NCBI GenBank assembly: GCA_963742075.1
Contig: CAVUKR010000004.1
Span: forward strand, 10,084-74,083
DNA: 64,000 bases
From: an uncultured Chloroflexia bacterium
Lineage (GTDB): Bacteria > Chloroflexota > Limnocylindria > Limnocylindrales > CSP1-4
Reading direction: 5' to 3'
Numbering within the stretch: position 1 is the stretch's first letter; every line of letters begins with the position of its first letter. The notes under the pieces were generated by a model. That model ran no database searches and had not been told where the DNA came from. It saw only the letters and a list, made by a program, of their open reading frames with translations. Of the stretch, positions 2,603 through 17,707 are shown piece after piece. A program made the position numbers and the translations under genes.

Positions 2603-2627
2603 GGCGGTCCGACCCGGCGTCCGGCCC

Positions 2628-4019: not shown

Positions 4020-4061
4020 CGAGCCCGATCGACAGCCATACCTCGTTCGAGGAGAGATACC

Positions 4062-4445: not shown

Positions 4446-4512
4446 CCGGGGTCATTCGGCAGAAGCGTCCGCCGGCGGCGAGCCCAACCCGGCTCGACCG
4501 CGCCGGATCTGA

Positions 4513-5425
4513 TCACGGAGTCAGCGTGACTGGCACCGGCCGGCCCTGCTGCACCTCGAGCACCGTTCGCTCGCCCAGCGGAGCGGCGAGCTCGAGCGCC
4601 GCGGTTCGCGGTGCCCCTTCGGCCGTGCAAGCCCCGATCGTCATGTGGGGATGGCGCGTCACGATGACGACAACCGCCAGATCTGACTCGACCGCCTCGG
4701 CCGTGTAGTCCTCGCCGCACGGCTGATCGCCTGGCAACGGTGCCCCGATGAACGCGACCGTGAGCTGGCGCCCGCCGACCGTCCCGCTGGCCGAGTCGAT
4801 GGCGAGCCCGACCGGAGGATCGTCGGGGTTCCAGGGTGGCAGGACGACGGCGATCGCGTCGGCGATAGCCGCGCGTGTCACGGTGACCGCCGTGCCCTCC
4901 ACGGTCAGGTCCCAGACGGGCGCGGTGGCGGATCCGCGGCTCGTCTCGATCGGGCCAGTCGTCAACCGCGCGTCGGTGATCCGCAGGGGCGTGCAGTCGC
5001 CACACGGCTCCGACGTGCCGGCTCTTGATCGCGGCGACAGCTTGTTGCGCGGAGATCAGGGCGACGGACACCGTCGTGCCGTCCTGCCAGCGAACCTCGC
5101 CGTCCGGTGGTGTCGCTGCCGGCAGGCTGGCGTCTGCCTCGACCAAGCCGGCCATCAGCGCGCGCTTGTTGTTGTCGCCGACCGCCGGCTCCCAGTCGCC
5201 GACCTGGCCGGTCAGTTCGCCGACGAGCACGACCGCTGACGGGCCGCCCGCCGCTGCCACCGCGTCGGCCCAACGGGTGAGTGCGTCGCGGGCCTGCTGT
5301 TGGAGCTTGGCCGAATCGTCGCCAATCCCCCCACAACCGGCCAGGACGAGCGCCATGGCAACCACGGCAAGAACTGCGCCGGGACGGAGACGCGGAGGGA
5401 CGGGGCGACGGACCGGACGGAGCAC
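4513..5425 (-). pseudogene. Lipoprotein gene with one frame change near 5020-5030 (true pseudogene or assembly indel)
   Basis: The N-terminal part (frame of ORF 4352..5425) has a signal peptide plus the lipobox LVLAGC. Coding-like sequence then continues in the frame of ORF 4513..4965 (...AAIKS / RAGTSEPCGDCTPLRITDARLTTGPIETS...). Confidence 0.5.
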
Positions 5426-5526
5426 GTCCAGACCGTCCGCCGCACCACGTCGAAAGTCAAGGCCGCCAATTCAGCGCCGCCGTGCTCAGCAGCGTGCCGC
5501 TGGGCCGAAGAGAGAACTCGGCGCCG

Positions 5527-5554
5527 TGGCAAATTCTTCGCCAATGTCACCCGG
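5527..5554 (+). repeat. Array repeat copy (23/28 match)
   Basis: Sequence tggcaaattcttcgccaatgtcacccgg. Its TGA on the minus strand is the stop of the upstream minus-strand ORF frame. Confidence 0.7.
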
Positions 5555-5962
5555 TATCCGATGTGCCCCATTCCCGGTGAAGCTCGTCCCAGGCCATCTG
5601 CGTCAACAGGCCGAACCAGGTCCGGAAACGCGCAGCGAATGACCAGCCATGAGTGTTCGACGCGACATTCCCGAGAGTCTCGAGGAGGCCGACCTTGAGC
5701 CGTATCGAACGCCGGCATCGCCTGTCCGAAGGTAGTGCTCGACGGTGGCAAAGACCGCCGGGAATTCGGCGGTGTCGGCCCGGTCGAGCAGCCCGACCAG
5801 GTGACGGGCGCACTCCCCAAGGTCGATGTAGACGCCACGCTCGCCGGGGTCCGGCCAGTCCGCAACGTAGTCACGCCACGGATCACGGAATGAAGGGCAT
5901 GCTTCAAGCAGCGCCGGGATGAGGACGCGATCGGGGTCGTGTGGTCCGGGCGGTTCCGTCAT
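5547..5962 (-). pseudogene. Immunity-like small protein, frame-shifted near 5700
   Basis: ATG 5962 overlaps the upstream stop (ATGA). The N-terminal part is MTEPPGPHDPDRVLIPALLEACPSFRDPWRDYVADW...ATVEHYLRTGDAGVR. The C-terminal part continues in the frame of ORF 5547..5813 (LKVGLLETLGNVASNTHGWSFAARFRTWFGLLTQMAWDEL). It is a paralog of 13893..14230. Confidence 0.5.
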
Positions 5963-6604
5963 TCGTCGCGACCTGGCCGCGAGCCATGGATCGGGTGCTC
6001 GGCCAGAACACGACGACGTAGATCGGCAGTCCGCTTGTGAGCCACGCTCGAGTCTCCCGTGGCGTCGAGGATCGCCTCGAAACGCCGCTCGCCAGCGGTC
6101 GTAGGTCGGCGTCCGTCGCACGATGTTCTCCATGCCTTGGGCATGCCGTACGCCAGGATTCGAGACGAAGTGGAAGCCGAACGACTCGGCCTTTTCGTCG
6201 ACGTCGTCGATGACCGCGAAGTCCCAGCGCAGCCAGCCGGGGTCTGACGGCATCTCGACCTCGGCCGGGAAGAAAGCGACCTCATCGCCAACGGAAAAGG
6301 GCGGGCCGGGCGGTTCCATGGCTTGGCGTTCGGGAATGTCACCCGAGGTCGTCGGCTCGATCGAAGCGATCGCCGAACCAGGAGCGTCCGGCGGCGTCGT
6401 ACTGGTGACCTCGCAGTGGTAGCAGCCATCGATTCCGTTGCCGCTGCGGTGCCAGTCGTGGCTTCCGCAATCCCTCGCCTTGGGTACGACCAACCCCAGT
6501 CGGTAGTACAGGACATCCGGCGTGTGGACCCGAAGCCACGCGCGCCATCGGGCATTGCGAAGGCTGAACGGGTAGTCGGCAACGTCTCGGTCTGACTGAG
6601 GCAC
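5959..6604 (-). CDS. Cys/His-motif protein (paralog of 12378..12608) with a C-terminal extension; probable frame change near 6090
   Basis: Leaderless signature TATCCT-GACGCC-GTG(6604). The N-terminus RDVADYPFSLRNARWRAWLRVHTPDVLYYRLGLVVPKARDCGSHDW...DGCYHC is about 80% identical to the second copy. The last part appears to continue in the frame that ends at 5959. Confidence 0.5.
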
Positions 6605-6629
6605 GGCGTCAGGATAGGTCGCGAACAGA

Positions 6630-6655
6630 TCGCAAAGCGTGCCTCAATGACACGG
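6630..6655 (+). repeat. Array repeat copy
   Basis: Sequence tcgcaaagcgtgcctcaatgacacgg, 25 nt from GTG 6604. Confidence 0.9.
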
Positions 6656-6671
6656 CGGGCGCAGTCGGCCG

Positions 6672-7490
6672 TCAATCCTGGTGATTTCGGGACTGCTCCC
6701 ATACGGCGACGATCGGCGGAAGGACTTCCACTATGAAACGTCGGGCGTCGTCAATCGAGGTCGGACCATGTGCGGTTGCCACTTCGAACACCGCGAGTCG
6801 ATCCGGCTCCGGTCCCGATAGCTGGATGGACCAAGATGGTTGCTCGACCCGCCAGACGAGGCCAGCGCGCTGACCGTCTGGTGCAATCACGTATGCGTCG
6901 CCAGTATGGTCAAGCGTGTCGAGCGACGATGTGATCAAACCGAGCCTCCAGCCCTCGGCTTCCACGCCATCGAGCACTGGGAACCCGTGGTAGACGGGGG
7001 CACCGGGCGGGGGCGCGAGAAACGCAGGGAGACGTGAATCAGCGGACTCGGCGGCGGTGTCCAGTGCGACCGGGTGACCAACCGTATCGAAGGGTCGGTC
7101 CGTTGGTGTCCAGGCTGGGAACGCCCCTCGAGCCTCGGGGACCGTTAGACGGCGCGTAGGAACGTCCTGACGACGGGGTCGCTTCTCCCCGCGACGGTCC
7201 GCCAGCAGCCACCGGGTGGCATACACGAACAATGCCAGGTCGAACGCGAGGAAGGCCCCGCCGACGAACAGCCGCCACTCGAGTTGCCCACGGACGTCGC
7301 CAGGGGAGTAGGTCACTGTCGGAAAGAAGACCCCCAGGACGAGGAAGACCATCGTCACGGGCCCAACGATCAAGAGCGCCTTCGCCGACGCGCGTCGTCG
7401 GACATAGGCATGGAACATACGCCAATAGGCGTCGTCGTCCATCTCTGTCCCTTTCGGACTCGGGGATCGTCCACCGCGTTCCAGCGACAT
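6672..7490 (-). CDS. Hypothetical membrane-anchored protein
   Basis: 272-aa ORF. The more likely start is ATG 7442, which has AAAGGGA 6 nt upstream. It has two TM helices followed by a soluble C-terminal domain. Confidence 0.6.
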   Translation of the reverse strand: MSLERGGRSPSPKGTEMDDDAYWRMFHAYVRRRASAKALLIVGPVTMVFLVLGVFFPTVTYSPGDVRGQLEWRLFVGGAFLAFDLALFVYATRWLLADRRGEKRPRRQDVPTRRLTVPEARGAFPAWTPTDRPFDTVGHPVALDTAAESADSRLPAFLAPPPGAPVYHGFPVLDGVEAEGWRLGLITSSLDTLDHTGDAYVIAPDGQRAGLVWRVEQPSWSIQLSGPEPDRLAVFEVATAHGPTSIDDARRFIVEVLPPIVAVWEQSRNHQD

Positions 7491-7526
7491 TCTCCGTCCG
7501 TACGACGGGGTGCGAGCGCCGCTTGG

Positions 7527-7553
7527 TCACTCAGTGTTCGCCAATAACACCAG
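7527..7553 (+). repeat. Array repeat copy, degenerate
   Basis: Sequence tcactcagtgttcgccaataacaccag, about 18/27 match to the consensus. Confidence 0.5.
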
Positions 7554-7595
7554 CACGTCACATGGTTGCGGCCCGCGCCTCCGGGGCTTTGGCGT

Positions 7596-8228
7596 TCAGC
7601 TGAGGAAGATCAGCGCGATTGCGATAGCGCTGGCCGCGACGACCGGTATCTGGAGCAAGCCGCTGCGCGAGATCTGCGCATGAGCGATCGCCTTCCCCGT
7701 CTGTTCATCGACGCCTCGCATCGCCCGAACCGCTGTCGCGCCGGTCGCGCCGATCGCGAGAGCGGACGCTCCACTGATCAGGCCGAGGATGACGAATGGC
7801 CAGTCAGTGAGGGCCTTCGTGGGTTCTTCGACGATGAAGAGCGCCAGCAATGCAACGACGATGCCAAGGACGACGACTTCGAGGATGTAGACGGCAGCGA
7901 GTGTCGATATCCGAGGATCGCCGACGCCCCGCTGGCGGGCAACGAGGGCGAGCCCGATGATGCCGCCAATCGCTGCAGGTCCAGCCGCCAAGAGTCCATC
8001 GGCCGGGTCCGTGACGTCGCCCGCGACAAAGATGGCCAGCAATCCGACGACCGTACCCAAGACGGCAGCGCCCAGGCAGAAGGCCATGAGGATCATCGCG
8101 AGACTTCGGCCCGTTGGGACCTGGCGGCTAACGACCGCTCCATCGGGGGGCCACGTGCCCGTGGAGATCAGACCGAGCGCGACGGCGGCCCCAAAGGAGG
8201 ATAAGCCAGTCATCAGCAGTGGGCCCAC
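7596..8228 (-). CDS. Hypothetical polytopic membrane protein
   Basis: 210 aa with about 6 hydrophobic helices. GAGAGG lies 6 nt upstream of GTG 8228. Confidence 0.6.
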   Translation of the reverse strand: MGPLLMTGLSSFGAAVALGLISTGTWPPDGAVVSRQVPTGRSLAMILMAFCLGAAVLGTVVGLLAIFVAGDVTDPADGLLAAGPAAIGGIIGLALVARQRGVGDPRISTLAAVYILEVVVLGIVVALLALFIVEEPTKALTDWPFVILGLISGASALAIGATGATAVRAMRGVDEQTGKAIAHAQISRSGLLQIPVVAASAIAIALIFLS

Positions 8229-8356
8229 GAAGAACCTCTCGACGGCGAGTGTCGGGCCAGCATAGCCACGCAGAGGCGCTCGATCAGCTTCGCCGTGCCA
8301 CCGCTTCGAGAAGGCCGCACAAACCGATCAGCTGACCGACGGAATATTCCCTGCCG

Positions 8357-8380
8357 TCACATAGCGTTCGTCAGTGACGC
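8357..8380 (+). repeat. Array repeat copy, degenerate
   Basis: Sequence tcacatagcgttcgtcagtgacgc, about 16/24 match. Confidence 0.4.
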
Positions 8381-8446
8381 TTGCTCTCGCCGGGCGCGCG
8401 GTCGGCCCATGCGCGACCGGGCGGGCTGGCGCGCCGTCTTCCTGCC

Positions 8447-8809
8447 ATGAAGGCGGTCGCCGGTCTGCTGCTCTGCTCACTCGTCGCGTGCTCCGCGGCG
8501 GGGGCTAGCGCCACGCCACCGATATCTGCCGAGGCAGCTCAGGCCGTGGCCCTCAGCAATGCCGGCTCGTCGACCCCACCGCGCGTCCTCTCGGTCCGGC
8601 TGTCCACCTACGGGCTGGAGACTTCCGGCGGGTTGGTCGTTGCCGCCGCCACACCGGTCTGGTCCGTTCTCATTGCCGGCTCCTTCCCGTCCTCCTGCGG
8701 CCCGTATACGGCCACCCCGCATCCCTGCCCGGCCCCAGCGACGACCGAGCGCGTGCTGGTCGACGCCAGAACGGGTTCCTTCATCGAGGGCGACATCCCG
8801 GGAACGTAA
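8447..8809 (+). CDS. Putative lipoprotein
   Basis: ATG 8447. MKAVAGLLLCSLVACSAAG is a signal peptide with a lipobox. Confidence 0.6.
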   Translation: MKAVAGLLLCSLVACSAAGASATPPISAEAAQAVALSNAGSSTPPRVLSVRLSTYGLETSGGLVVAAATPVWSVLIAGSFPSSCGPYTATPHPCPAPATTERVLVDARTGSFIEGDIPGT

Positions 8810-8839
8810 AGGGCCGGCCATGGCGAACGGAACGCGTGG

Positions 8840-8866
8840 TCGCAAAGCGTGCGCAGATGACACCAG
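8840..8866 (+). repeat. Array repeat copy
   Basis: Sequence tcgcaaagcgtgcgcagatgacaccag, lying between convergent ORFs. Confidence 0.9.
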
Positions 8867-8879
8867 AGATGGGCCCTGC

Positions 8880-9293
8880 TTAACGCTCGACGAGTTGGCA
8901 GGGACCGACGCCGCAGTAGACGCCAACCGCGACTCGCGTGCCATCAGCGAGGTCGAGCACGACTACGCCGACTGTCGAACTGCCCTCGGCGGTGCCGGGG
9001 ATGGACTCTTGGTAGAAGCCGTGGCCGACGATGGCCGCTGGGGCGACGCCTCGTTTGCTTGTCGCCGTATCTGTGGCGACTCGCAGATATTCATCGCATG
9101 TGGCATCAGCGTAGGCGGCGCAATCGAGGGGAGTTCCGAGCGTGTAGTGGTCGACCACCGTTCCTGATACAAGCGCGCCGCTTGCCGTCGATCCACCCGA
9201 GCATCCGGCGAGGACGATGGCTTGCATGAACACCATGAGTGCTAGAGCGCGGACTCGTGTCCGTTTGCGATTGTCCCGGCGAAGGGCCCTCAT
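8880..9293 (-). CDS. Putative lipoprotein
   Basis: Leaderless signature TACCCT-GAACTA-ATG(9293). The signal peptide ends in IVLAGCSGG. Confidence 0.65.
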   Translation of the reverse strand: MRALRRDNRKRTRVRALALMVFMQAIVLAGCSGGSTASGALVSGTVVDHYTLGTPLDCAAYADATCDEYLRVATDTATSKRGVAPAAIVGHGFYQESIPGTAEGSSTVGVVVLDLADGTRVAVGVYCGVGPCQLVER

Positions 9294-9318
9294 TAGTTCA
9301 GGGTACTGGCCGTTACAA

Positions 9319-9342
9319 TCGCATAGCGTGCTGGAACAACCC
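9319..9342 (+). repeat. Array repeat copy, degenerate
   Basis: Sequence tcgcatagcgtgctggaacaaccc. The first 13 nt are nearly perfect. Confidence 0.55.
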
Positions 9343-9393
9343 TAGAGAGTACCCACGGGACGTCCCGAAATCGGGACGACATCAAATCGATCG

Positions 9394-9744
9394 TCAGGGA
9401 GCCTGGCGACGCTCGACCTCTTCGAGCATCTCTCGCAGGATGTCAGCTTGATCGGTGGCCGACAGCAGATACGGGCCACGTCCTCGCAATGCCTCTCGCC
9501 GGCTCTGGATCCGGGTCCACTGACCATCGTCGCCCATCAGATCCACGCTCCACTCGTCCCGATCTCGCACGAGCCGTACGGCGACCGGTCGAGTCAGGAT
9601 GACCTCCTGGTTGCCGAAGGACTCGGAGTCGTAGCGGTCGCGCACAACCACGAAACCCCGGTCAGCAAGCCAAGACCGAAGATCGGCCATAACGGCATCG
9701 TCGGCTGTCCATCCGACGGCGCTCGGGTCCTTTCTGGAAGGCAT
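9394..9744 (-). CDS. Hypothetical small cytoplasmic protein (immunity-like)
   Basis: Leaderless signature TACCCT-N7-ATG(9744). 116 aa with no TM segment. Confidence 0.6.
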   Translation of the reverse strand: MPSRKDPSAVGWTADDAVMADLRSWLADRGFVVVRDRYDSESFGNQEVILTRPVAVRLVRDRDEWSVDLMGDDGQWTRIQSRREALRGRGPYLLSATDQADILREMLEEVERRQAP

Positions 9745-9770
9745 TGGGACGAGGGTACATCCCGGCCTGG

Positions 9771-9794
9771 TCAGTCAGCGTCCGCCGATGTCCC
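9771..9794 (+). repeat. Array repeat copy, degenerate
   Basis: Sequence tcagtcagcgtccgccgatgtccc, about 17/24 match. Its first 3 nt are the stop codon of ORF 9771..10094. Confidence 0.5.
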
Positions 9795-10094
9795 TTGAGC
9801 CGATGGCGTCCTCTCCGACACCGAGAGGAATACGCAGGTCGCGAGTGGACGTGCACCTTCGCGAAGCACGAGTCTCGCGTTTCGGGCGGAATCGGGCTGC
9901 GATCTCAGGAAGACTGCCAGGTACGAGCAGCCGCACGGTGCCTCGTCCGGAGTGGAGTGTGGGAGCGAGACGACCACGCTGAACGCGTCGCTAACCGGCT
10001 CTTGCTCAAACGTTGCGACGAGGCGGAGGGTCTCAGGCAATTGCCGAAGACTGTCTACCACCGTAACGGAGACGGTCGCCTCTGGATCGCGCAT
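9771..10094 (-). CDS. Hypothetical protein
   Basis: Leaderless signature TAGCCT-N8-ATG(10094). 107-aa ORF. Confidence 0.45.
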   Translation of the reverse strand: MRDPEATVSVTVVDSLRQLPETLRLVATFEQEPVSDAFSVVVSLPHSTPDEAPCGCSYLAVFLRSQPDSARNARLVLREGARPLATCVFLSVSERTPSAQGTSADAD

Positions 10095-10121
10095 GCGGTC
10101 TCAGGCTACCCGACCTTGGTG

Positions 10122-10244
10122 TCGCAAAGCGTGCGCGAATGTCACCCGGTCGCGTGCTGTCAAACCTAGCGGGATGTCGAGCCACGTCGATGCGGCCATG
10201 CCGGCTCGGGCGAACCAATCTGCCGGGAGGGAAACCTATGATCG
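10122..10244 (+). repeat. Extended 123-bp repeat, copy A (starts with the 28-mer at 10122-10149)
   Basis: About 90% identical to 15570..15693, with about 11 substitutions and one 1-nt indel. Confidence 0.9.
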
Positions 10245-10267
10245 CAAAGCGTGCGCCAATGACACAT
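10242..10267 (+). repeat. Array repeat copy
   Basis: Sequence tcgcaaagcgtgcgccaatgacacat, directly abutting extended copy A. Confidence 0.9.
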
Positions 10268-10364
10268 GACCGTGCGGCCCGCTGTGATGGTTGCAGTCGG
10301 CCCTTGACGAGGTTCTGGAGCGGGCACACGATCGTGCGGACAGCGACCCGCGCAGGGGGCCAAC

Positions 10365-10583
10365 TTGGGCGATCTGGAACGGATGCTCGATCTATACGGA
10401 CCGCTCTGGATCATGATGATGCTCTGGATCGGGCTTGCGGGCGCCGTCGCAATCGCCGCGGGCCGACGGGGCTACAACCAATACATCTGGTTTTTTGGAT
10501 GCCTGGTGCTATCCCCGCTCATCGGTTTCGTGCTCCTGGCACTGCTCACTCCCGGACGCGGAGGCCCTCATCGGCCAGCCTGA
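10365..10583 (+). CDS. Small two-TM membrane protein
   Basis: The start is TTG 10365 or ATG 10383. The product is MLDLYGPLWIMMMLWIGLAGAVAIAAGRRGYNQYIWFFGCLVLSPLIGFVLLALL. Confidence 0.55.
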   Translation: MGDLERMLDLYGPLWIMMMLWIGLAGAVAIAAGRRGYNQYIWFFGCLVLSPLIGFVLLALLTPGRGGPHRPA

Positions 10584-10632
10584 CCGCGCACGTCACTGGT
10601 GACCAACGTTTATCGGCGACGTTGCCGCATCG

Positions 10633-10660
10633 TCGCAAAGCGTGCGTCAATGTCACCCGG
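10633..10660 (+). repeat. Array repeat copy
   Basis: Sequence tcgcaaagcgtgcgtcaatgtcacccgg, followed by tcgcgcg as in the extended repeat. Confidence 0.9.
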
Positions 10661-10707
10661 TCGCGCGATCGACATGGGACCCCAGAATGTCTAGCAGCGT
10701 CGGAAGG

Positions 10708-11175
10708 TCAGCTAACACGGCCGACCTGAAAGTCGCCCGTGGCGGCCTCAACGAAGCCTTCCTCCGTCAGCCGGGTCTCCATAAGGGGCAGGCCGCGCTC
10801 GATCACAACTGCAACGATCTGGGCCGTCAGGCGATCGAGGTCCGTGCATGCGTCAAGGTCCCACCAATGGTCTTCCCCGTCGTCGATCAGCTCGCCAATC
10901 CGCAGCTGCCAGCTGCAACGATAGGAAGGCGGCTTCCGACTCGGATCGTGACCCTGGGCAGCTAAGACACGGTCAAGCCCAACCCCGATATTGATTGTGA
11001 ATCGCACGTGAGCCCGTGAACCGAACTGAGACTTCTGGAAGTTGACGACCCCCCAGCCGTCCGCTCCGCGTCGATGAAAGCTCGAACCGGTCTTGGTCAA
11101 TCCGCGTCCGCGTAGGGCCGGCGCGATGTCGGTCGTCAACCACCCTGCAAATCGTTCAACGGCTGTGTCAGGCAT
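10708..11175 (-). CDS. DUF4304-like protein
   Basis: The pattern APALRGRGLTKTGSSFHRRGADGWGVVNFQKSQFGSRAHVRFTINIGV matches DUF4304 as I recall it. AGAGGG Shine-Dalgarno upstream of ATG 11175. Confidence 0.75.
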   Translation of the reverse strand: MPDTAVERFAGWLTTDIAPALRGRGLTKTGSSFHRRGADGWGVVNFQKSQFGSRAHVRFTINIGVGLDRVLAAQGHDPSRKPPSYRCSWQLRIGELIDDGEDHWWDLDACTDLDRLTAQIVAVVIERGLPLMETRLTEEGFVEAATGDFQVGRVS

Positions 11176-11267
11176 GGCGGTTGCCCTCTATCGCATTCAA
11201 TCGACAAGCGGGCCACGAGTGTACGAGCCCGGACTTGTGTCACGTCTCGTGATACAGCGTCTATCTA

Positions 11268-11293
11268 TCGCAAAGCGTGCGCCAATAACGCTT
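11268..11293 (+). repeat. Array repeat copy
   Basis: Sequence tcgcaaagcgtgcgccaataacgctt. Confidence 0.85.
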
Positions 11294-11353
11294 GAGGTCG
11301 TGCGACCAAGGCGTGGGATCTATCGGCCGATGACGATGGATATCCGTACTGAC

Positions 11354-11713
11354 CTATTCGTGAATCCCAGCGAGAGCAAGGACGCCAACGAGGATAAGTA
11401 CCACGACAAGGACACCTCCCGTGACCAATACCGCCAGCAGCCGCTCATCCATGACTGGCTGACTGGGATATCCAAGATGACGGGCGATGAGCCACGCGCC
11501 CACGACCGTGACAGCGATCACTGCGCCAGCGTTACTCGGCGCTGCGACTGCGACCAGCACCGCCAAAGAGCCCAGGCCGAGCATGATCAGAAGCCGGAGA
11601 ACCACTGGCTTCCCGAGGGTGAGTCCTGCACGCCGAGCAGCGAAGAGGGCGCCGGTGATGGCGACCACTCCAACCAACGTCGCGCCGAGGAGGACGAAGA
11701 CCTCTCGACTCAC
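11354..11713 (-). CDS. Small membrane protein (4 TM)
   Basis: 119 aa and hydrophobic. GTG 11713 overlaps the stop of the upstream small ORF (GTGA). Confidence 0.6.
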   Translation of the reverse strand: MSREVFVLLGATLVGVVAITGALFAARRAGLTLGKPVVLRLLIMLGLGSLAVLVAVAAPSNAGAVIAVTVVGAWLIARHLGYPSQPVMDERLLAVLVTGGVLVVVLILVGVLALAGIHE

Positions 11714-11868
11714 GGGATCGGGCTCGCCTTGCAGTCATCTACAGCCACGACGATTGGCAGGGCAGCCGCAAGACAGACACAGATCAGACCCGGAGCCACC
11801 AGGCGCAGCGTCCCAGCCAAGGGGTCATCCATCAGCACGACGATATCCCGCGTCCGATGTGCGGGCAA
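11710..11868 (-). CDS. Candidate 52-aa single-TM peptide, translationally coupled
   Basis: Below the ORF-track size cut-off. TAGCCT-N9-TTG(11868). The product ...LRLVAPGLICVCLAAALPIVVAV... ends with its stop overlapping the next start. Confidence 0.3.
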   Translation of the reverse strand: MPAHRTRDIVVLMDDPLAGTLRLVAPGLICVCLAAALPIVVAVDDCKASPIP

Positions 11869-11909
11869 CGATCAGGCAGGCTACGCCACGAAGAGACACG
11901 GGCCTTTGG

Positions 11910-11936
11910 TCGCAAAGCGTGCGCCAATGTCACCAG
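11910..11936 (+). repeat. Array repeat copy
   Basis: Sequence tcgcaaagcgtgcgccaatgtcaccag. Confidence 0.9.
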
Positions 11937-11958
11937 ATCGACGACGGCAAGCTTGCTT

Positions 11959-12294
11959 CTATCGGGCGATCACGACGACGATCACGGCAAGCGACAGCAC
12001 CAGTGCAGCCACCAGAGCGCTCGTGAGCCATTTGGAGCGAGGCCGATCTCGAGTCAACCAGTACGCCGCGAAGCCGGCCGACGCTGCGGCGAGCACGAGG
12101 CCCAACGCCTCGGGTGCCGGCCCTTGGAGCAGGACTGCCAGCACGACCATGACGACCGCCAGCCCAACGAACAATCGAGCGAGCCACGGGCTGGCATCGA
12201 CAACCGCCTCGCGCCCGCCGCGTTGCCAGATTGGGAAGACGACGACCATGGCGGTCACGACCATCGTCACGAGGGCGGCGTAGGCGTAGGCCAC
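11959..12294 (-). CDS. Small membrane protein (about 4 TM)
   Basis: Leaderless signature TATCCT-CTTGCC-GTG(12294). The hydrophobic product is the C-terminal part of ORF 11959..12552. Confidence 0.5.
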   Translation of the reverse strand: MAYAYAALVTMVVTAMVVVFPIWQRGGREAVVDASPWLARLFVGLAVVMVVLAVLLQGPAPEALGLVLAAASAGFAAYWLTRDRPRSKWLTSALVAALVLSLAVIVVVIAR

Positions 12295-12335
12295 GGCAAG
12301 AGGATACGCACAGTCCGCAGACAGATGAGCTGCCG

Positions 12336-12363
12336 TCTGACAGAGTGCGCCGATAACGCCAGA
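12336..12363 (+). repeat. Array repeat copy, degenerate
   Basis: Sequence tctgacagagtgcgccgataacgccaga, about 18/28 match. Confidence 0.4.
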
Positions 12364-12377
12364 GTCTGATGGGCAGG

Positions 12378-12608
12378 CTACCCAGAGGGCGTCGCGGGCC
12401 TCGGCCTCGTGACATCGCGGTGGTAGCAGCCGTCGAGTCCGTGGCCCTTGTTGCGCCAATCGTGGCGCCCGCAATTGCGAGCCTTGGGCACCACCAATCC
12501 CAGACGGTAGTACAGGACATCGGGCGTGTGCACCCGAAGCCAGGTGCGCCATCGAGCATTCCGAATGCTGAACGGATAGTCAGCAACGTCGCGGGCTGGG
12601 TCTGACAT
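12378..12608 (-). CDS. Cys/His-motif small protein (paralog of the 6604 N-terminus)
   Basis: Leaderless signature TATGCT-GAGGCC-ATG(12608). The product contains RDVADYPFSIRNARWRTWLRVHTPDVLYYRLGLVVPKARNCGRHDW...DGCYH. Confidence 0.6.
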   Translation of the reverse strand: MSDPARDVADYPFSIRNARWRTWLRVHTPDVLYYRLGLVVPKARNCGRHDWRNKGHGLDGCYHRDVTRPRPATPSG

Positions 12609-12633
12609 GGCCTCAGCATAGGTGTCGGCCAGA

Positions 12634-12661
12634 TCGCAAAGCGTGCGTCAATGTCACTTGG
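12634..12661 (+). repeat. Array repeat copy
   Basis: Sequence tcgcaaagcgtgcgtcaatgtcacttgg. Confidence 0.9.
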
Positions 12662-12723
12662 CAGTACGGGCGAACCCGCGTTCCAGGGTCGTCGAGGCTG
12701 TCTGGAAAGGAAGGTTGGTGGGG

Positions 12724-13173
12724 CTACCGAGCGGCTTGGCTCACACCCCACGCGATCAGAACGACAACAGCCACCAATCCGACGATCAGCAGCACGCCAG
12801 CCAGCGTGCCCAGATAGTCCACGAAGGGTTCAGTCACCGCCGCCCCGATGTCATCTTGCGGACCTGTCGAGGTCACGGTGCGGGACAGACGAGTCAGGAA
12901 GCGGAGCACGATGGCGAGGTAGATGCCGCCGCCGATGACCAACCCCGCTCCCAGGAGTGGCTCGGTCGCCAGCATTTGGAGTCCGACCCACGGGAGCACG
13001 ATCGCGCCGATCAGTGTCGGCACGAACATCAACCATACGAACTGACCCTGCCGAGCCATCACGCGACGAGCTGCGCAGTGGCGCACGCCGACCAGCAGTA
13101 CCACAACGGCGATCGCGACGAGGACGGGTGTCTCCATCGCGGGAAGTGTCCATCGGGAGAAGCCGCGAATCAA
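12724..13173 (-). CDS. Hypothetical membrane protein (4 TM)
   Basis: 149-aa hydrophobic ORF. The start is TTG 13173 or ATG 13137. Confidence 0.6.
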   Translation of the reverse strand: MIRGFSRWTLPAMETPVLVAIAVVVLLVGVRHCAARRVMARQGQFVWLMFVPTLIGAIVLPWVGLQMLATEPLLGAGLVIGGGIYLAIVLRFLTRLSRTVTSTGPQDDIGAAVTEPFVDYLGTLAGVLLIVGLVAVVVLIAWGVSQAAR

Positions 13174-13260
13174 TCGCGCGACGGGCCCCTCGCCTTGCGG
13201 TGTCGGCGGGCACCCGAAGCCCGATGAGCGGGAAGGGACACCCGGCAGACCTCTCTGCTA

Positions 13261-13288
13261 TCCATCAGTGTCCGTTAATGTCACCCGG
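13261..13288 (+). repeat. Array repeat copy, degenerate
   Basis: Sequence tccatcagtgtccgttaatgtcacccgg, 19/28 match. The 3' half is perfect. Confidence 0.55.
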
Positions 13289-13411
13289 GCCGTCTCACGC
13301 CCTATGTATGGAATGCGCACGTGGACTCGACCCCCGGCGCAAGGTCCGCAATCAGATCGTGAAGTAGTCGCCCTCGGAGGATCCGTGGGAACGCGGAGGG
13401 GAGACGACTGG

Positions 13412-13930
13412 GTGTCCAAGCCGATCGGGCGCGGGATCGTGGTGGTGGCGTTGGCCGCAGCCGCTCTCCTCGTCGGCATCGTGATCATCCCTCGCATGGA
13501 AAACGTCTTCGCGGGCGCGGCTGGCATTCATGACGCCGCGTCGCTACCCGAGCAGATCAACATCTGCGGGCGCAGTTGGAGCAAAGACGCGTTGAACCGC
13601 GAGTTCAGCCTGGCCGAGATCCGGGCGCGGGACGGCATCGAGCCCGTCGTCGTGGACCCTGGACTGTTCGCGTCGTGCCCGGCCGGGCCGTGCACGACGC
13701 TGGCTCAGAGCGGTCCCTGCGATACCGTGATCTGCGTGCGCGTCGGCGAGGATGCTTACCTTGACTATGCGCTCCAAGGCAGACAGTACGCGCACGCCGC
13801 CAGAGCACGTGATAGCGAAGTTGACCGAGTCGGTGGCCGTAGCGAAATATCCTTGGCTCCGCCCAGCTTGATCCTGAGCGACACGAGCCGGTTCAGGCGG
13901 TCGAGCGGGGACAGGTTCTCGGCAAGGTGA
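13412..13930 (+). CDS. Membrane-anchored Cys-rich hypothetical protein
   Basis: GGAGGGGAG lies 8 nt upstream of GTG 13412. It has a signal-anchor helix followed by ...ICGRSWSKDAL...CPAGPCTTLAQSGPCDTVICVRVGEDAYLDYALQG. The C-terminal tail may be read-through. Confidence 0.5.
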   Translation: MSKPIGRGIVVVALAAAALLVGIVIIPRMENVFAGAAGIHDAASLPEQINICGRSWSKDALNREFSLAEIRARDGIEPVVVDPGLFASCPAGPCTTLAQSGPCDTVICVRVGEDAYLDYALQGRQYAHAARARDSEVDRVGGRSEISLAPPSLILSDTSRFRRSSGDRFSAR

Positions 13931-14230
13931 TGGATCGAAGCGACAGGTCCTCGAGGTTAGTCAGGAGCGAAAGCACCTCGATGCGCTTCGCTGACCACGA
14001 GGTGAAGGATTCGAGTCCTCGGAACCGATCTGGGAGCGTCAGGTGCCAGCCTTGCTTTCGGCCGGCGCGATATCGAGGTACACGAGGGGCCGTACCCAGA
14101 TGGCCTCGGCCTGGTGGGCTCGCCACGCATTCTTGAACGAGGGGCATGCGGCCACAAAGGCGGACATCACCGGCCCCGACTGGGCTTGATGCTGGTTCTC
14201 GCTGACCGGGCCGTCGCCCACATCACCCAT
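13893..14230 (-). pseudogene. Immunity-like protein remnant (paralog of 5547..5962), frame-shifted
   Basis: Leaderless signature TATCTT-GCGACG-ATG(14230). The motif FVAACPSFKNAWRAHQ parallels LLEACPSFRDPWRDY. Coding-like sequence continues in the frame of ORF 13893..14147. Confidence 0.4.
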
Positions 14231-14255
14231 CGTCGCAAGATACGGCACCGTCGAG

Positions 14256-14284
14256 TCGCAAAGCGTGCGGGAATGTCATCCGAG
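14256..14284 (+). repeat. Array repeat copy
   Basis: Sequence tcgcaaagcgtgcgggaatgtcatccgag. Confidence 0.9.
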
Positions 14285-14438
14285 CGCTTTGGAGCCCAAT
14301 GCGCGGTAGGACGAGGCCGTGGACACGATCGTGGCGGAGACTCGGCGCAGTCGCCAAAGAGGCTCTCGCGCCGGTCCAGTACTCTCGGCCCAACAGGAAG
14401 TTGGGCGACTCGGGCAGGAACGGAGCGTGAGACCGTCC

Positions 14439-14783
14439 ATGGTCGATACCTACGGTGGCGGCCTCTTCGTGGCCACGTGTGCCGTCTCGTTCTTCGTGTT
14501 GTTCTCGACGATCCTCTCCAGCCTGTTTGTTCCCGTGGATCGGCTCACCTCGATGCCAACGTGGTATCGGACACTGACCATCCCGAGGCGAACCCGCCCG
14601 GTGCTCCTGTACTACAAGGCGGCGTGCTCCGTGTTCCTGATCCTGAGCCTGACACTGCCGCTGTTCGTGCTCCTCAAGTGGGACCAGGTCGGGGCCCAAG
14701 ACCATGTCGCCGGGGCGGCGAGTTGGATCGGGATCCTGATCTGGTCCGCCGTTCTCTGGAGGACGGTCGGCGGGGTTCGGTAG
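14439..14783 (+). CDS. Small membrane protein (about 4 TM)
   Basis: ATG 14439 lies within ORF 14319..14783. The product begins MVDTYGGGLFVATCAVSFFVLFSTILSSLFV... Confidence 0.5.
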   Translation: MVDTYGGGLFVATCAVSFFVLFSTILSSLFVPVDRLTSMPTWYRTLTIPRRTRPVLLYYKAACSVFLILSLTLPLFVLLKWDQVGAQDHVAGAASWIGILIWSAVLWRTVGGVR

Positions 14784-14803
14784 GTCGCACTTTGTCGGTC
14801 GTG

Positions 14804-14830
14804 TCGCAAGGCGTGCGCCAATGTCACCCG
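14804..14830 (+). repeat. Array repeat copy
   Basis: Sequence tcgcaaggcgtgcgccaatgtcacccg. Confidence 0.9.
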
Positions 14831-14909
14831 AGGACTCAGGGCTCGACCTGCACATGAGCCGATGAGGTCATCAGGTGGCTTTGACCTGGGCGGCATAGTC
14901 CGCGGGCTG

Positions 14910-15395
14910 TCAGCCGGTGTTCGGTGGGTACTCGCCCACCCAGTACTGCTTGATCGCGACGCCCCGCGCCCGAAGTTCGACGAACAGTTCGCGGATCCGG
15001 GGCCGGGGCCAATAGCCAAGGGTCAGCCGGGTCACGGGCACGCCATCGCGTGTCAGCCGCAACGAGGCGATGTTCTCGAGGGTGAACTCGGCCTGCGTCC
15101 GCCCGTCGAGCGCAAGCACGACGCCCGGCCGCTGGAGCAGGACCTCGATCCAGCGCCGCACCACGACCGTGTCGTCGGAGAACGTCAGCTCGCGCTGGAT
15201 GTAGAGCCAGCCGCCGTCGATGAACAGAAACGCGAACGCGGCCATCACTACGACCAGGAACCCGACCCACCACTGCTCGGTGCCTACCCGCAGCGTCGCC
15301 ATACCCCGAACGGCGACCACCACCCCGGCCACGCACACCACGACAAAGAGGATCGGCCCCGGTTGGGGCGCTGGTGGATTGACGCGCGTCGTCAC
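14910..15395 (-). CDS. Membrane protein with a soluble C-terminal domain
   Basis: GTG 15395 overlaps the stop of the upstream small ORF (GTGA). It has two TM helices and then ...LYIQRELTFSDDTVVVRRW... Confidence 0.55.
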   Translation of the reverse strand: MTTRVNPPAPQPGPILFVVVCVAGVVVAVRGMATLRVGTEQWWVGFLVVVMAAFAFLFIDGGWLYIQRELTFSDDTVVVRRWIEVLLQRPGVVLALDGRTQAEFTLENIASLRLTRDGVPVTRLTLGYWPRPRIRELFVELRARGVAIKQYWVGEYPPNTG

Positions 15396-15541
15396 GTCGC
15401 GTCTGCTCCGGCGATCCCGCTCCCGGCAGAGATGACCTCGCTCGACAGGGCCCTCATACCGAACGCATCCTCGACGATGCTGCCTGTTGCCGGTCCGTCG
15501 GCCAGGACCGCCATTGAACCGACCATTACGAAGACACGCAT
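15392..15541 (-). CDS. Candidate 49-aa leaderless small ORF
   Basis: TACCAT-N9-ATG(15541), located 13 nt after the repeat. The product is MRVFVMVGSMAVLADGPATGSIVEDAFGMRALSSEVISAGSGIAGADAT. GC3 is about 75% by hand count. Confidence 0.3.
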   Translation of the reverse strand: MRVFVMVGSMAVLADGPATGSIVEDAFGMRALSSEVISAGSGIAGADAT

Positions 15542-15569
15542 CTGGAGTCCATGGTACGGGTCGTTCTCG

Positions 15570-15693
15570 TCGCAAAGCGTGCGCGAATGTCACCCGGTCG
15601 CGCGCTGTCAAACCTAGCCGGATGTCAAGCCACGTCGATGCGGCGAGGCCGGCTCGGCGCGAACCAAGTTGCCGGGCAAGAAACCTATGATCG
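15570..15693 (+). repeat. Extended 124-bp repeat, copy B (starts with the 28-mer at 15570-15597)
   Basis: About 90% identical to 10122..10244. Confidence 0.9.
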
Positions 15694-16288
15694 TGGAGTG
15701 AACATCTTCCAGATCGTCCTCGTTCTTGCCGTCTTGATCCTGTGGCTCTTACTCCTCAACTCGTGGCGGTTGAGGAACTGGCGGGCAGTAACCTTGGGTG
15801 CGGTTGGGACGATCGTGTTCCTGGCCGCCGGGATGCTTCCCAGCTCGGTCCGGGAAGTGGCTCAACCTGGCATCTGTTTCGTGTTCGTGTGGGTCTTCCT
15901 GTTCCGGCCGGGGCTCGTCGGCGTGATGCCCCCGGAGGAGTACGACTATGTCGATGCGCACATCCAGATCTTGCGGCGGATCGATCGGCGGAAGCACGCC
16001 TCCGATCGACCCGACCCGACGACCGCTCTCCGCGAATACGAGTCGGACGTACGATCGCTCGAAGCACTCGACGCGCCGCTGGCATGGTCGAAACTCCACC
16101 GGGACACGGTTCGAGAGCTGGAGCGACGATTGACCGCCATGAAGGCAGGAACGCTGCGGTCCCCTGAAGACTTGCGGCCATTTGACGACCGCTGGCTCGA
16201 GGTCGGGCAACTCTTCCGGGACACCCTGAGGGCCAGGGCTGGGTTCTGGACTGGCTGGCCCCATTTGGTCCGACGCTCGGGGTCGTAG
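15689..16288 (+). CDS. Membrane protein with a helical cytoplasmic C-terminal domain
   Basis: GTG 15689 starts VNIFQIVLVLAVLILWLLLLN... The same frame is also open back to the ATG inside the 28-mer. Confidence 0.55.
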   Translation, partial: DRGVNIFQIVLVLAVLILWLLLLNSWRLRNWRAVTLGAVGTIVFLAAGMLPSSVREVAQPGICFVFVWVFLFRPGLVGVMPPEEYDYVDAHIQILRRIDRRKHASDRPDPTTALREYESDVRSLEALDAPLAWSKLHRDTVRELERRLTAMKAGTLRSPEDLRPFDDRWLEVGQLFRDTLRARAGFWTGWPHLVRRSGS

Positions 16289-16297
16289 ACAGCGTCA

Positions 16298-16325
16298 TCG
16301 CAATGCGTGCGCCAATGTCACCTGG
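16298..16325 (+). repeat. Array repeat copy
   Basis: Sequence tcgcaatgcgtgcgccaatgtcacctgg, 10 nt after stop 16288. Confidence 0.9.
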
Positions 16326-16401
16326 CGAGCTTCGTCGACGGATAGGCAGCCTGTGGCAAGCTCTGGCGCTGAGACTCGGGAGCTTTCAACCAACTCTGCG
16401 G

Positions 16402-16428
16402 TCAGACAGCGTCCGCCAACGTCGCCTG
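16402..16428 (+). repeat. Array repeat copy, degenerate
   Basis: Sequence tcagacagcgtccgccaacgtcgcctg, about 19/27 match. It resembles the copy at 9771. Confidence 0.45.
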
Positions 16429-16566
16429 ACATGATCGACCGTCGACAGCCAGGACCTCGTAGGGCGGCCCCGGTGCCCCGGCCGGACAATGAACCGTCAC
16501 GTATCGGCGCTGCTTAGGCACGGCGTCTCGGCACGCGCTGCGGTCACGATCCCGAGAAGCGTCCAT
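16402..16566 (-). CDS. Candidate 54-aa leaderless ORF (possibly a remnant)
   Basis: TACCCT-CGGCGC-ATG(16566), located 13 nt after repeat 16592. The stop lies inside degenerate repeat 16402. Confidence 0.25.
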   Translation of the reverse strand: MDASRDRDRSACRDAVPKQRRYVTVHCPAGAPGPPYEVLAVDGRSCQATLADAV

Positions 16567-16591
16567 GCGCCGAGGGTACAGCGCCCCGGCA

Positions 16592-16618
16592 TCGCAAAGC
16601 GTGCGTCGATGACGCCAG
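16592..16618 (+). repeat. Array repeat copy (right-most)
   Basis: Sequence tcgcaaagcgtgcgtcgatgacgccag. Confidence 0.9.
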
Positions 16619-16673
16619 AGCGCATCGATCTCTGGCAGCGACCCGACAGTACCGGCCGCCTAGACTTGGTGCC

Positions 16674-16862
16674 ATGACCGACCTGGGTGTGACGCTGCTC
16701 TTCGCTGTTGCGGCGGTCTTCCTGGTGGTTGGACTCAGCGCGGGTATCGCGACGGAGCACACCGACGCCCAGCTACCCCGGGCGGTCACGTACGGACAGC
16801 GTCGTCGCCATGTCCGGCGTCGAGCGTTGCTCGTTGAAGTCCCAGTCATGGGCTTAGCGTGA
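16674..16862 (+). CDS. Possible small single-TM protein
   Basis: ATG 16674 starts MTDLGVTLLFAVAAVFLVVGLSAGIA... The tail overlaps the convergent DUF1801 gene. Confidence 0.3.
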   Translation: MTDLGVTLLFAVAAVFLVVGLSAGIATEHTDAQLPRAVTYGQRRRHVRRRALLVEVPVMGLA

Positions 16863-17264
16863 TTTCGCCGGAGGCTTCTTCTTTGCGAACTGGGGCGCCA
16901 GCTTCAGGTAATGGTCGAAGCCTGACTGGGCGATCTGGCCCAGTTCCTCGACTAGTGGCTCGTCGACGGTCGTGAAGTTGAAGCACGACTTGCCCTGCAT
17001 GCGGCGGCGCAGAGCGGGCGACATCGACTCGACGACCTCGGGTTGGGCGTAGACCGACATCAGGTAGACGCTGACGTAGCGCTTGCCCACGCGAGTGCCG
17101 CCGACGTAACCCCACGGCTCGGCTTCGAGCCCGGGGATCTGGAGGATCAGGCCGTCGGCATCGTCCTTGGTCGCCACCAGCCGCGAGCGGAACGGGTCGA
17201 AGATCATGCGAAGACGGCGATCGACCTCGGCGAAGGCCACCGTCGGTGGCGGACGACCACTCAC
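16854..17264 (-). CDS. DUF1801 (YdhG-like) domain protein
   Basis: The pattern ...WGYVGGTRVGKRYVSVYLMSVY...RRRMQGKSCFNFTTVDEPLVEELGQI... is typical of this family. Confidence 0.75.
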   Translation of the reverse strand: MSGRPPPTVAFAEVDRRLRMIFDPFRSRLVATKDDADGLILQIPGLEAEPWGYVGGTRVGKRYVSVYLMSVYAQPEVVESMSPALRRRMQGKSCFNFTTVDEPLVEELGQIAQSGFDHYLKLAPQFAKKKPPAKSR

Positions 17265-17266
17265 GG

Positions 17267-17707
17267 TCAGGCCAACCCTGTGGAAGGCACGACGACCTCG
17301 AATCCTTCGCGCTCCGCCGCTTGAGCGAGACGATCATCGAGGGTCACGAGCGGGAGCGAGGCCGGACGATCCTCGGATGCGCTGATCGCGGCGCCGAGCT
17401 GAAACGCGTCAGCTGCCCGCAGCCCATGCACGCGGAGGAGCCGATTGGCTGTCTGACGAATCCGGTCGACCGGCTGGACCTCCTGCCAAGCGTGCACGAG
17501 CTCGTCGAGACGTTGGATCGCTTTCGCGCTGCCAGGGCCATCCAGCCTCGCCTCGCGTTCCATTCGGGCGATGGCCGACACACATTCGACCCGAGTCGCC
17601 CACCAGACGATGATCTCGCCGTCCCGTTCGACCTCGGCCATGGCGGCCGAGGTCGAGGGCTCCCCGACGAGCAGGGGCACGATCGCCGACGTATCCCAGA
17701 ACCTCAT
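17267..17707 (-). CDS. vapC: Type II toxin, PIN-domain ribonuclease VapC
   Basis: MRFWDTSAIVPLL... carries the conserved acidic residues (D5, E, RAADAFQ, TLDDRL). It overlaps the upstream antitoxin by 4 nt. Confidence 0.9.
   Translation of the reverse strand: MRFWDTSAIVPLLVGEPSTSAAMAEVERDGEIIVWWATRVECVSAIARMEREARLDGPGSAKAIQRLDELVHAWQEVQPVDRIRQTANRLLRVHGLRAADAFQLGAAISASEDRPASLPLVTLDDRLAQAAEREGFEVVVPSTGLA

Follow-up and report, generated by a model that had tools for sequence, protein, structure and literature searches.

An oriented 28-bp core element in candidate poly-immunity cassette arrays of a Chloroflexota lineage

What role does a short sequence have that stands again and again between small unrelated genes, always in one orientation? 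This question is raised by a stretch of 64,000 nucleotides from an uncultured Chloroflexia bacterium (GenBank assembly GCA_963742075.1, contig CAVUKR010000004.1, positions 10,084 to 74,083), here called the window, in which an island at 5500-16900 holds ~22 copies of a 28-bp element, the core, together with ~25 small genes. An earlier note on this DNA had described a cassette-type island with a conserved boundary or regulatory element, and our analysis supports that description, since the element is confined to the island and homology between genomes breaks at the element. We put it at somewhat better than even that the island is a heterogeneous poly-immunity cassette array of a Chloroflexota lineage, with the core acting both as the upstream half of a promoter and as the junction between cassettes.

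Copies of the core were scored with a weight matrix made from 13 of them, using a hit threshold of at least 10 bits and 20 shuffles of the window as control. The matrix gave 20 hits, on a single strand and all within 5527-16619, and 0 hits in the shuffles; in the rest of the window (53 kb, both strands) no core was present and the top score was 3.4 bits. A search with the 28-mer of the earlier note, allowing at most 3 mismatches, returned 7 matches against 0 expected, and a repeat search grouped 14 copies in register, all on the plus strand as written. Altogether the window has 22 core copies, on one strand only and all between 5527 and 16619, which bears out the same-orientation array that had been claimed. 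Every copy on the original list of about 21 stands, and one was added at 6319-6346 (71% identity). The 14 good copies, starting at 5527, 6630, 8840, 10122, 10242, 10633, 11268, 11910, 12634, 14256, 14804, 15570, 16298 and 16592, are 79-96% identical to the 28-mer, slightly below the 80-100% reported for them, and the seven degenerate copies (7527, 8357, 9319, 9771, 12336, 13261 and 16402) are 61-71% identical; two of these, 9771 and 13261, fall below the matrix threshold with 9.2 and 7.8 bits. The spacing is irregular, as had been said, with a measured range of 104-1622 nt in place of about 65-1300 bp. A supposed look-alike at 24588-24608 is not a copy, as it scores about -31 bits without gaps and its resemblance needs an indel. 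The composition profile sets the island apart as well, with a GC content of 62-65% against ~70% in the flanks and a GC3 that is also lower.

The earlier note had proposed a motif search in related genomes, and this gave same-orientation arrays at different chromosomal sites and no even spread. An exact-pattern scan with one genome per species returned 99 stretches, and those that also carried the left half of the core were taken as true hits. All true hits belong to metagenome-assembled genomes (MAGs) of Chloroflexota (uncultured Chloroflexia, Ca. Limnocylindrales, Chloroflexota bacterium) with a GC content of 65-71%, and most of these MAGs carry several cores, for example 16 in 8.5 kb (L025 and L001), 13 (L093 and L039), nine (L066) or six (L041). 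With a stricter pattern, 36 contigs from environmental metagenomes were found, each with several copies. The pooled set, including two loci found via a protein homologue, comprises 53 loci and 284 kb; of its 178 copies 0 lie on the opposite strand, and their median spacing is 549 nt. The element is restricted to one Chloroflexota lineage. The sites of the arrays differ between genomes, and at least two of them are conserved on the chromosome, one after the gene of a phosphoenolpyruvate (PEP)-utilising enzyme (four genomes) and the other downstream of BCKDH E1-beta (the window, L112 and L120). A phage or plasmid origin was rejected, as there was no plasmid match and the matches in viral contigs were due to chance, with low GC and the left half of the core missing.

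These data bear on the view that the core has no dedicated function and is either a portable strong promoter spread by local duplication or a decaying dispersed repeat. Local duplications that include cores do exist (143 nt and 261 nt), and many copies are degenerate, mostly at the distal end of the array. We nevertheless regard this view as very improbable: the same core with the same invariant positions recurs across dozens of genomes, before unrelated genes and with flanks that cannot be aligned, its orientation rule is absolute, and cores lacking promoter use have decayed no further than the rest. The confinement of the core argues in the same direction, since the remaining 53 kb of the window have none and, in contigs of relatives of 1.4-2.9 Mb, the exact pattern is limited to one 8-16-kb stretch.

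The functional orientation of the core is that of the minus strand, where its consensus reads yCnrGTGwCATTssCGsACrCTtTGCGA (CCGGGTGACATTGGCGCACGCTTTGCGA). Conservation sets in sharply at position 1-2 and falls off sharply after position 28 (28|29). Weaker conservation continues beyond this point, also in copies without a full -10 box (CGT at 35-37, T42, C45, G48), so that the repeat is better seen as a promoter-sized module of ~48 nt. The repeat search found no inverted repeat or dyad in the core, and neither strand of it forms a stable single-strand DNA fold (z-scores -1.6 to 0), which confirms the lack of dyad symmetry that had been asserted. With no hairpin, no regular spacing and no Rfam match, the earlier statement that the layout does not fit CRISPR, attC, repetitive extragenic palindromic (REP) elements or the ends of insertion sequences is upheld too. 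A second core variant (..CGGACACTGTGCGA, ..CTAAGCGA, ..CTGAnTGA) shares arrays with the main one. Positions 17 and 20 co-vary, being C/G in 112 copies, G/A in 25 and A/A in 10, with few mixed copies, and both sub-types are present inside one and the same array; they could correspond to two binding specificities.

Three other identities for the core were considered and rejected. A coding repeat or conserved peptide, as in orphan modules of the Rhs or contact-dependent inhibition (CDI) type, was discarded because upstream open reading frames (ORFs) mostly stop before or inside the core, and because its variable positions coincide with second codon positions of the one frame that is open. A three-frame stop module was discarded because stops in all frames are found in only 5 of 161 cores; some ..CTGAnTGA cores do have TGA in each of the three frames, a core TGA serves as the stop of several ORFs, and the share of ORF ends inside the core is not enriched (26% vs 23% in the control). 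A known RNA family was discarded as the island has no Rfam hit.

The geometry downstream of the core is that of a promoter. Among 161 distinct copies from related loci, with random positions in the same DNA as control, TAnnnT was found 11-14 nt past the core in 51 (35 of them at exactly 13 nt; control 0.7%), and an ORF of at least 35 aa starts 5-10 nt after TAnnnT in 42 (control 0.12%). About one third of the copies therefore have the layout core, 13 nt, TAnnnT as -10 box, 6-8 nt, start codon. In the window the full layout is seen at 6630, 9319, 9771, 10122, 12634, 14256, 15570 and 16592, in each case before a minus-strand ORF that begins with ATG or GTG. Many copies without a full -10 box have one that is decayed by a single base, such as TACCCG or TAGCCC.

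Judged as leaderless promoters of the primary sigma factor, about one third of the copies have the expected -10 box (TAnnnT, 6-8 nt before the start), but a TTGACA-like -35 box at 16-18 nt from the -10 box was found in none of the motif promoters. That position reads ACGCTT or CGCTTT, and the core's TTGCGA is separated from the -10 box by only 13 nt; a consensus scan for sigma-70-type promoters in the island gave 0 sites. Native genes of the window have leaderless promoters with a normal -35 box, for example TTGACA-17-TAAGTT-7-ATG. From the leaderless geometry that the two share, the core sits at about -53 to -26, which would be the place of an activator site or of an unusual -35 region. We also considered an extracytoplasmic function (ECF)-type promoter, formed by G[C/G/A]AC at positions 16-19 and CGT at 35-37, but its spacing is short and the CGT is weakly conserved. 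Elsewhere in the window, at 41291-41353, divergent leaderless promoters (TTGACA-17-TAAGTT-7-ATG and a partner) share a palindrome, ACTTAGTACTCACTAAGT, which looks like the operator of a local repressor.

Each unit of the array is marked by one oriented module of ~48 bp, made of the 28-bp core, a semi-conserved 13-nt spacer and the TAnnnT -10 box, and we propose that the core would take the place of the canonical -35 region in a leaderless promoter of the primary-sigma type. Transcription would then start from these promoters, and the core may be where a DNA-binding factor specific to the lineage docks, be it an activator, a repressor or a sigma region, which would switch all cassettes together.

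The units of the array are exchanged, and the core marks where. Arrays have hardly any proteins in common, and syntenic loci differ in content. Every block of homology that blastn finds between genomes has a boundary in or at the core, with alignments that begin at core positions 5-7 and end at position 22, or 2 nt beyond the core; the comparison of loci for module boundaries that had been suggested thus shows homology breaking at the element. Within the window, a duplication of 143 nt (10102-10244 and 15550-15693) ends precisely where the core at 10242..10269 (45.8 bits) has its 3' edge. In four genomes the stop codon of the PEP-utilising enzyme is directly followed by a shortened core (..GCGACAGCACGCTTTGCGA), and these loci diverge right after ...CTTTGCGA. 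A gene for a 76-aa protein lies behind six cores and keeps its own spacer and -10 box each time, with core variants and upstream neighbours that are all different; a homologue of 72% identity, from another lineage, lacks the core, and its promoter is an ordinary one.

The variable positions of the core indicate to which side it belongs. Their identity is 0.76 between copies that share the upstream flank only (13 pairs), 0.54 between copies that share the downstream flank only (21 pairs) and 0.53 between random pairs. By this measure, the core tends to go with the preceding unit, which puts the junction near the core's 3' edge. The mobile unit would then consist of spacer and -10 box, gene or genes, and core, so that an incoming gene would bring its own -10 box and have it completed by the core of the unit ahead. 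Homology for the exchange would most likely come from the 13-14 identical bases in the core's right half, the alternative being a dedicated recombinase encoded elsewhere.

The cargo of the arrays gives the reading its immunity part. In the window, the ORF at 10708-11175 encodes, by Pfam (E = 2.7e-20), a DUF4304 protein, and Pfam also recognises a DUF7674 remnant at the distal end; the other products of the array are mostly small membrane proteins, lipoproteins or proteins without a family. In the relatives, 56 array proteins were scanned with Pfam, all related arrays being pooled. Eight families of immunity type were found (Barstar, Imm1, T6SS_Tdi1_C, DUF4265, DUF4279, DUF4304, DUF6193 and DUF6869), along with APH, GNAT, glyoxalase and SnoaL; the array L137 has MafI2, DMP19 and DUF6714. 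The count of eight is that of the pooled arrays, and in no single array were four such families observed together. DUF4279 is a described immunity family (PMC9424270, PMC13304343). No toxin domains were seen in the arrays. Taken together, the families of the relatives correspond to the content of a heterogeneous poly-immunity locus. A polymorphic toxin upstream of the arrays was rejected, as the long ORF shared there is the PEP-utilising enzyme and reflects housekeeping synteny.

The 76-aa protein has a Cys/His pattern (C..H..C.HC) and two paralogues on the minus strand of the window (12378-12608 and 6378-6604), which share 261 duplicated nt at 81% identity. It has only 19 homologues among 5.8 billion proteins, all in environmental assemblies, and belongs to no Pfam family. 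In a lineage free of the core (L138-L141, JGI/Logan contigs) a gene of this family heads a three-gene operon that adjoins Fic, RES and AAA_14/DUF4143 genes, a conflict-system neighbourhood.

A number of observations weigh against a poly-immunity array with the core as promoter half and junction. The first is that a recognisable and rightly spaced -10 box accompanies only about one third of the cores. The second concerns what follows the core. Across all arrays, 159 cores could be classified by the next gene, which is co-oriented in 83 and without a confident call in 30; the remaining 46 (~29%) face the 3' end of a gene on the opposite strand. In the window such genes lie at 8447-8809, 10365-10583, 14319-14783 and 15698-16288, and 5 of ~25 genes are inverted. 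Only 4 of the 46 opposite-facing cores have a -10 box and nine have one that is spoiled at its last base, and yet their median score is 40.5 bits against 34.6 bits. As these cores are near-perfect without a -10 box, promoter use alone fails to explain why the core is conserved. The 28-bp core is maintained independently of driving the next gene, possibly through another binding role (boundary, road-block or recombination) or through constant renewal by exchange. Further, the junction statistics come from few and partly non-independent pairs, and 4 of the 13 pairs that share the upstream flank break at the core's 5' edge. A mapping of crossovers by hybrid cores likewise had too few independent pairs to tell homologous from site-specific exchange. 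No candidate for a core-binding protein was found. A recognised immunity family is present in just 1-2 of the ~25 window genes, so the immunity label for the window rests mostly on the relatives and on the many small membrane proteins. Lastly, both database scans demanded ..CGCACGCTTTGCGA, and the sample therefore over-represents that variant of the core.

Several of these points would be explained if the core were an attachment site for site-specific recombination, analogous to attC or to the repeat of the rAID-1 arrays of gut Bacteroidales, and served by a recombinase elsewhere in the genome. Cassettes made up of payload and core would be cut out and put in at the 3' edge of a core already in place, and the promoter role would be secondary. 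We hold this to be possible, at well under an even chance. It explains why each unit has one core regardless of how its payload is oriented, including the 29% that face a convergent gene and are near-perfect without a -10 box, and it accounts for the sharp fall of conservation at 28|29. It also fits a core that travels with the upstream unit, a conserved flank that ends in a core variant with variable DNA right after ...TTTGCGA in four genomes, and arrays at no fewer than two conserved sites, the PEP-utilising enzyme gene and BCKDH E1-beta. Tyrosine and serine core sites, attC and the targets of HUH enzymes, however, have either a dyad or a hairpin and the core has neither; the 4 of 13 pairs that break at the 5' edge do not suit it; and homologous exchange in the conserved 13-14-nt stretch predicts every junction observation equally well.

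The recombinase itself is the other difficulty. The earlier note had advised inspecting the flanks for a recombinase or a regulator, and none is consistently nearby. No recombinase was found by Pfam in the flanks of the island, which hold VapBC, BCKDH and membrane proteins, or among the top 25 families listed for 36 further proteins of the window, so that a weak match there may have escaped. The same was true next to more than 10 related arrays with readable flanks, L025 being the sole exception. There, at 2211-4314 of CAWHDR010000005, a large serine recombinase and a Rep-like ORF with an HUH motif (HLHFAL) lie 1-3 kb upstream of a 16-copy array, about 2 kb away, and this would favour an attachment site; the enzyme has no homologue in any other locus, however, and since no other array has such neighbours, this may be a case of array cargo carried by an integrative element. 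A linked recombinase was rejected, because neither the L025 serine recombinase and Rep-like ORF nor an HTH_17 protein of L136 has a counterpart in the other loci or in the window. In L136, four CTGCCAGTCGACA-type repeats at 8903-9400, between the HTH_17 (excisionase-like) gene and a small core array, look like the arm-site region of an integrated element. In the window, a VapBC-type pair (PIN domain and PhdYeFM antitoxin) lies at 17267-17997 on the minus strand, with the BCKDH operon on one side and the array's proximal end on the other.

The two roles may also be combined in a cassette-capture platform of soil Chloroflexota, in which the 28-bp site is the attachment and crossover point of an unlinked recombinase and at the same time the upstream half of a split promoter. 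We consider this rather doubtful. If true, a cassette with only a -10 box and a leaderless gene would be switched on behind a resident core, and the system would be an analogue of the integron built from unrelated parts.

Cores without a promoter lead to one more explanation, in which the core is an operator and the array binds a silencing or road-block repressor, so that the island is off, or read-through is stopped, until a signal arrives. Cluster A mycobacteriophages have such sites in their stoperators, which are asymmetric, 13-14 bp long, numerous, placed in short intergenic gaps in one orientation and bound by a known repressor. The core resembles them as an asymmetric operator-like site with many copies in short intergenic gaps and one orientation; it differs in being a 28-bp chromosomal site that marks exchange junctions. 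Its strict single orientation, its occurrence once per intergenic gap and its presence where a promoter is absent would suit an operator, and as intrinsic terminators are not enriched between units, read-through would need some other control. Expression of rAID-1 has been reported to be competitor-induced (10.1101/471110), which would also suit a signal-dependent island. All the same, we think an operator array unlikely. No repressor candidate was found, the fixed position at -53 to -26 in a third of the copies fits a promoter element better, and the context is not that of a phage, the scans of viral contigs having given chance matches. A poly-immunity array in which the core is promoter half and junction remains the reading that we favour.

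The individual units of the window can be followed from the proximal edge of the array downwards. This edge is formed by a gene for a 62-aa membrane protein on the opposite strand (16674..16862, plus strand), whose product has a 66%-identical homologue directly after a core in L070 (CAWEYB010000002). Between the core at 16592..16619 (40.7 bits) and the ATG of a 54-aa ORF (16402-16566) lie 13 nt, TACCCT and 6 nt; this ORF takes its stop from the final TGA of a degenerate core of the ..GACGCTGTCTGA type at 16402..16429 (16.4 bits). The core at 16298..16325 (43.8 bits) faces the 3' end of the opposite gene 15698-16288 and has a decayed -10 box (TACGAC). After the core at 15570..15597 (44.9 bits) come 13 nt, TACCAT and the ATG of a 49-aa ORF (15392-15541), which is coupled by a GTGA overlap to the ORF 14910-15395 (161 aa). 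The core at 14804..14831 (43.5 bits) has no -10 box and faces the 3' end of the opposite membrane-protein gene 14319-14783, and the one at 14256..14283 (41.2 bits) is separated by 13 nt, TATCTT and 6 nt from the ATG of a 63-aa ORF (14039-14230). The sequence 13290-14038, upstream of the degenerate core at 13261..13288 (7.8 bits, 71% identity), looks like decayed coding sequence.

Further down, the core at 12634..12661 (46.1 bits) precedes, through 13 nt, TATGCT and 6 nt, the ATG of the 76-aa ORF 12378-12608. A degenerate core (12336..12363, 16.0 bits) is upstream of a membrane-protein ORF (11959-12294), the best core of the window (11910..11937, 47.9 bits) is upstream of the ORFs 11710-11868 and 11354-11713, and the core at 11268..11295 (41.0 bits) is upstream of the DUF4304 gene. 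The core at 10633..10660 (46.4 bits) faces the 3' end of the opposite gene 10365-10583, which encodes a small membrane protein, and lacks a -10 box. From the core at 10122..10149 (44.9 bits), 13 nt, TAGCCT and 8 nt lead to the ATG of a 107-aa ORF (9771-10094) that stops on the last TGA of the degenerate core at 9771..9798; on the downstream side of the latter are 13 nt, TACCCT, 7 nt and the ATG of a 116-aa ORF (9394-9744). The degenerate core at 9319..9346 (15.8 bits) leads through 13 nt, TACCCT and 6 nt to the ATG of a lipoprotein-like ORF (8880-9293, 137 aa), and the core at 8840..8867 (42.0 bits) faces the 3' end of the opposite lipoprotein gene 8447-8809 (LVAC lipobox). Two more degenerate cores are found upstream of a membrane-protein ORF at 7596-8228 (8357..8384, 14.6 bits) and of a 272-aa ORF at 6672-7490 (7527..7554, 10.9 bits), the latter having a homologue that adjoins the array in L066.

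The distal end of the array, at 5527-6650, looks decayed, with weak cores and fused genes. The core at 6630..6657 (34.6 bits) is followed by 13 nt, TATCCT, 6 nt and the GTG of the second copy of the 76-aa family, 6378-6604. This gene is fused in frame, through the core at 6319..6346 (16.0 bits), to a truncated DUF7674 gene, so that this core lies inside a long fused ORF (5603-6604). The last core (5527..5554, 19.9 bits), itself decayed, is just downstream of the DUF7674 remnant (~5603-5960). Overlapping ORFs in this part are suggestive of frameshifts. Just outside the island, a lipoprotein-like ORF on the minus strand (4352-5425, with signal peptide and Cys) seems to be continued in another frame (4513-4965), and a frameshift or an assembly error could have broken it. 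Away from the array and unrelated to it, a thiamine pyrophosphate (TPP) riboswitch lies at 37036-37142 on the minus strand (Rfam RF00059, 65.5 bits), and its neighbour is linked to an NMT1/THI5-like hit among the window proteins.

Is the array a member of a system already known? On their defining features, membership in the integrons, in rAID-1, in CRISPR and in the REP elements or miniature inverted-repeat transposable elements (MITEs) fails. Like rAID-1, the arrays consist of short, mostly co-oriented genes of unrelated families, many of them putative orphan immunity types, have repetitive conserved intergenic motifs and a GC content below that of the genome (62-65% against ~70% here), and vary strongly in content between genomes. 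In rAID-1, however, a XerD-family recombinase stands at the head of the array, and here Pfam found none at the head or, among the families listed, in the 64-kb window. The arrays described here also belong to another phylum and have another repeat, one with a defined promoter geometry and leaderless starts; about a quarter of their genes are inverted, and they lie directly after housekeeping genes. CRISPR repeats are 24-48 bp long, recur with a regular period and have spacers of similar length, whereas the intervals here hold ORFs and vary in length as given above. REP elements and MITEs are palindromic or hairpin-forming units that are scattered through a genome, whereas the core has no structure and keeps to a single stretch of the window and, for exact-pattern matches, of the Mb-scale contigs of relatives.

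The likeness to integrons and to clusters of attC sites lacking integron-integrases (CALINs) lies in one oriented site per cassette, which tends to the 3' end of the unit, in functionally unrelated cassettes that are shuffled between genomes and in a variant of the site at the fixed proximal boundary. But attC sites are imperfect palindromes of 57-141 bp that fold as single strands and have R''/R' boxes (GTTRRRY), whereas the core is 28 bp, asymmetric and unstructured, contains no GTTRRRY and has conservation limited to ~48 nt. Integrons have the tyrosine recombinase IntI, with attI and Pc, at the array head; there is no IntI among the Pfam families listed for the window, and the cassettes are not promoterless. 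In function, the arrays nonetheless strongly resemble rAID-1 and the cassette arrays of integrons.

Poly-immunity loci share with these arrays the tandem and mostly same-oriented unrelated genes, here of a putative immunity type, without adjacent toxins, the large differences between related genomes and the usual number of one or two loci per genome (PMC3482391). Extended loci of this kind have been reported only in proteobacteria, bacteroidetes, firmicutes and actinobacteria, and polycistronic transcription was suggested for them (Zhang et al. 2012, PMC3482391); the present arrays are in Chloroflexota, and every unit in them carries a promoter-like module of its own along with a conserved repeat at the boundary. 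[quoted passage not shown] As would also be the case in our arrays, immunity genes accumulate there by recombination at conserved sequences; according to that account, they do so downstream of an active effector/T6SS cluster, where effector-immunity pairs are displaced, whereas no toxin or secretion genes were seen here. In the literature that we searched, we found no description of the core element or of such a system in Chloroflexota.

How genes are acquired and expressed in arrays of the poly-immunity and rAID type is still unexplained, even in the well-studied Bacteroidales. The lineage described here offers an unusually legible case, in which the 28-bp core is asymmetric and sharply defined, the promoter geometry is fixed, the chromosomal boundary is marked by a core variant and junctions can be read at base resolution. 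If our reading is correct, extended immunity arrays now reach the Chloroflexota, a dominant but poorly cultured phylum of soil, and the arrays would point to intense contact-dependent or toxin-mediated competition in this group.

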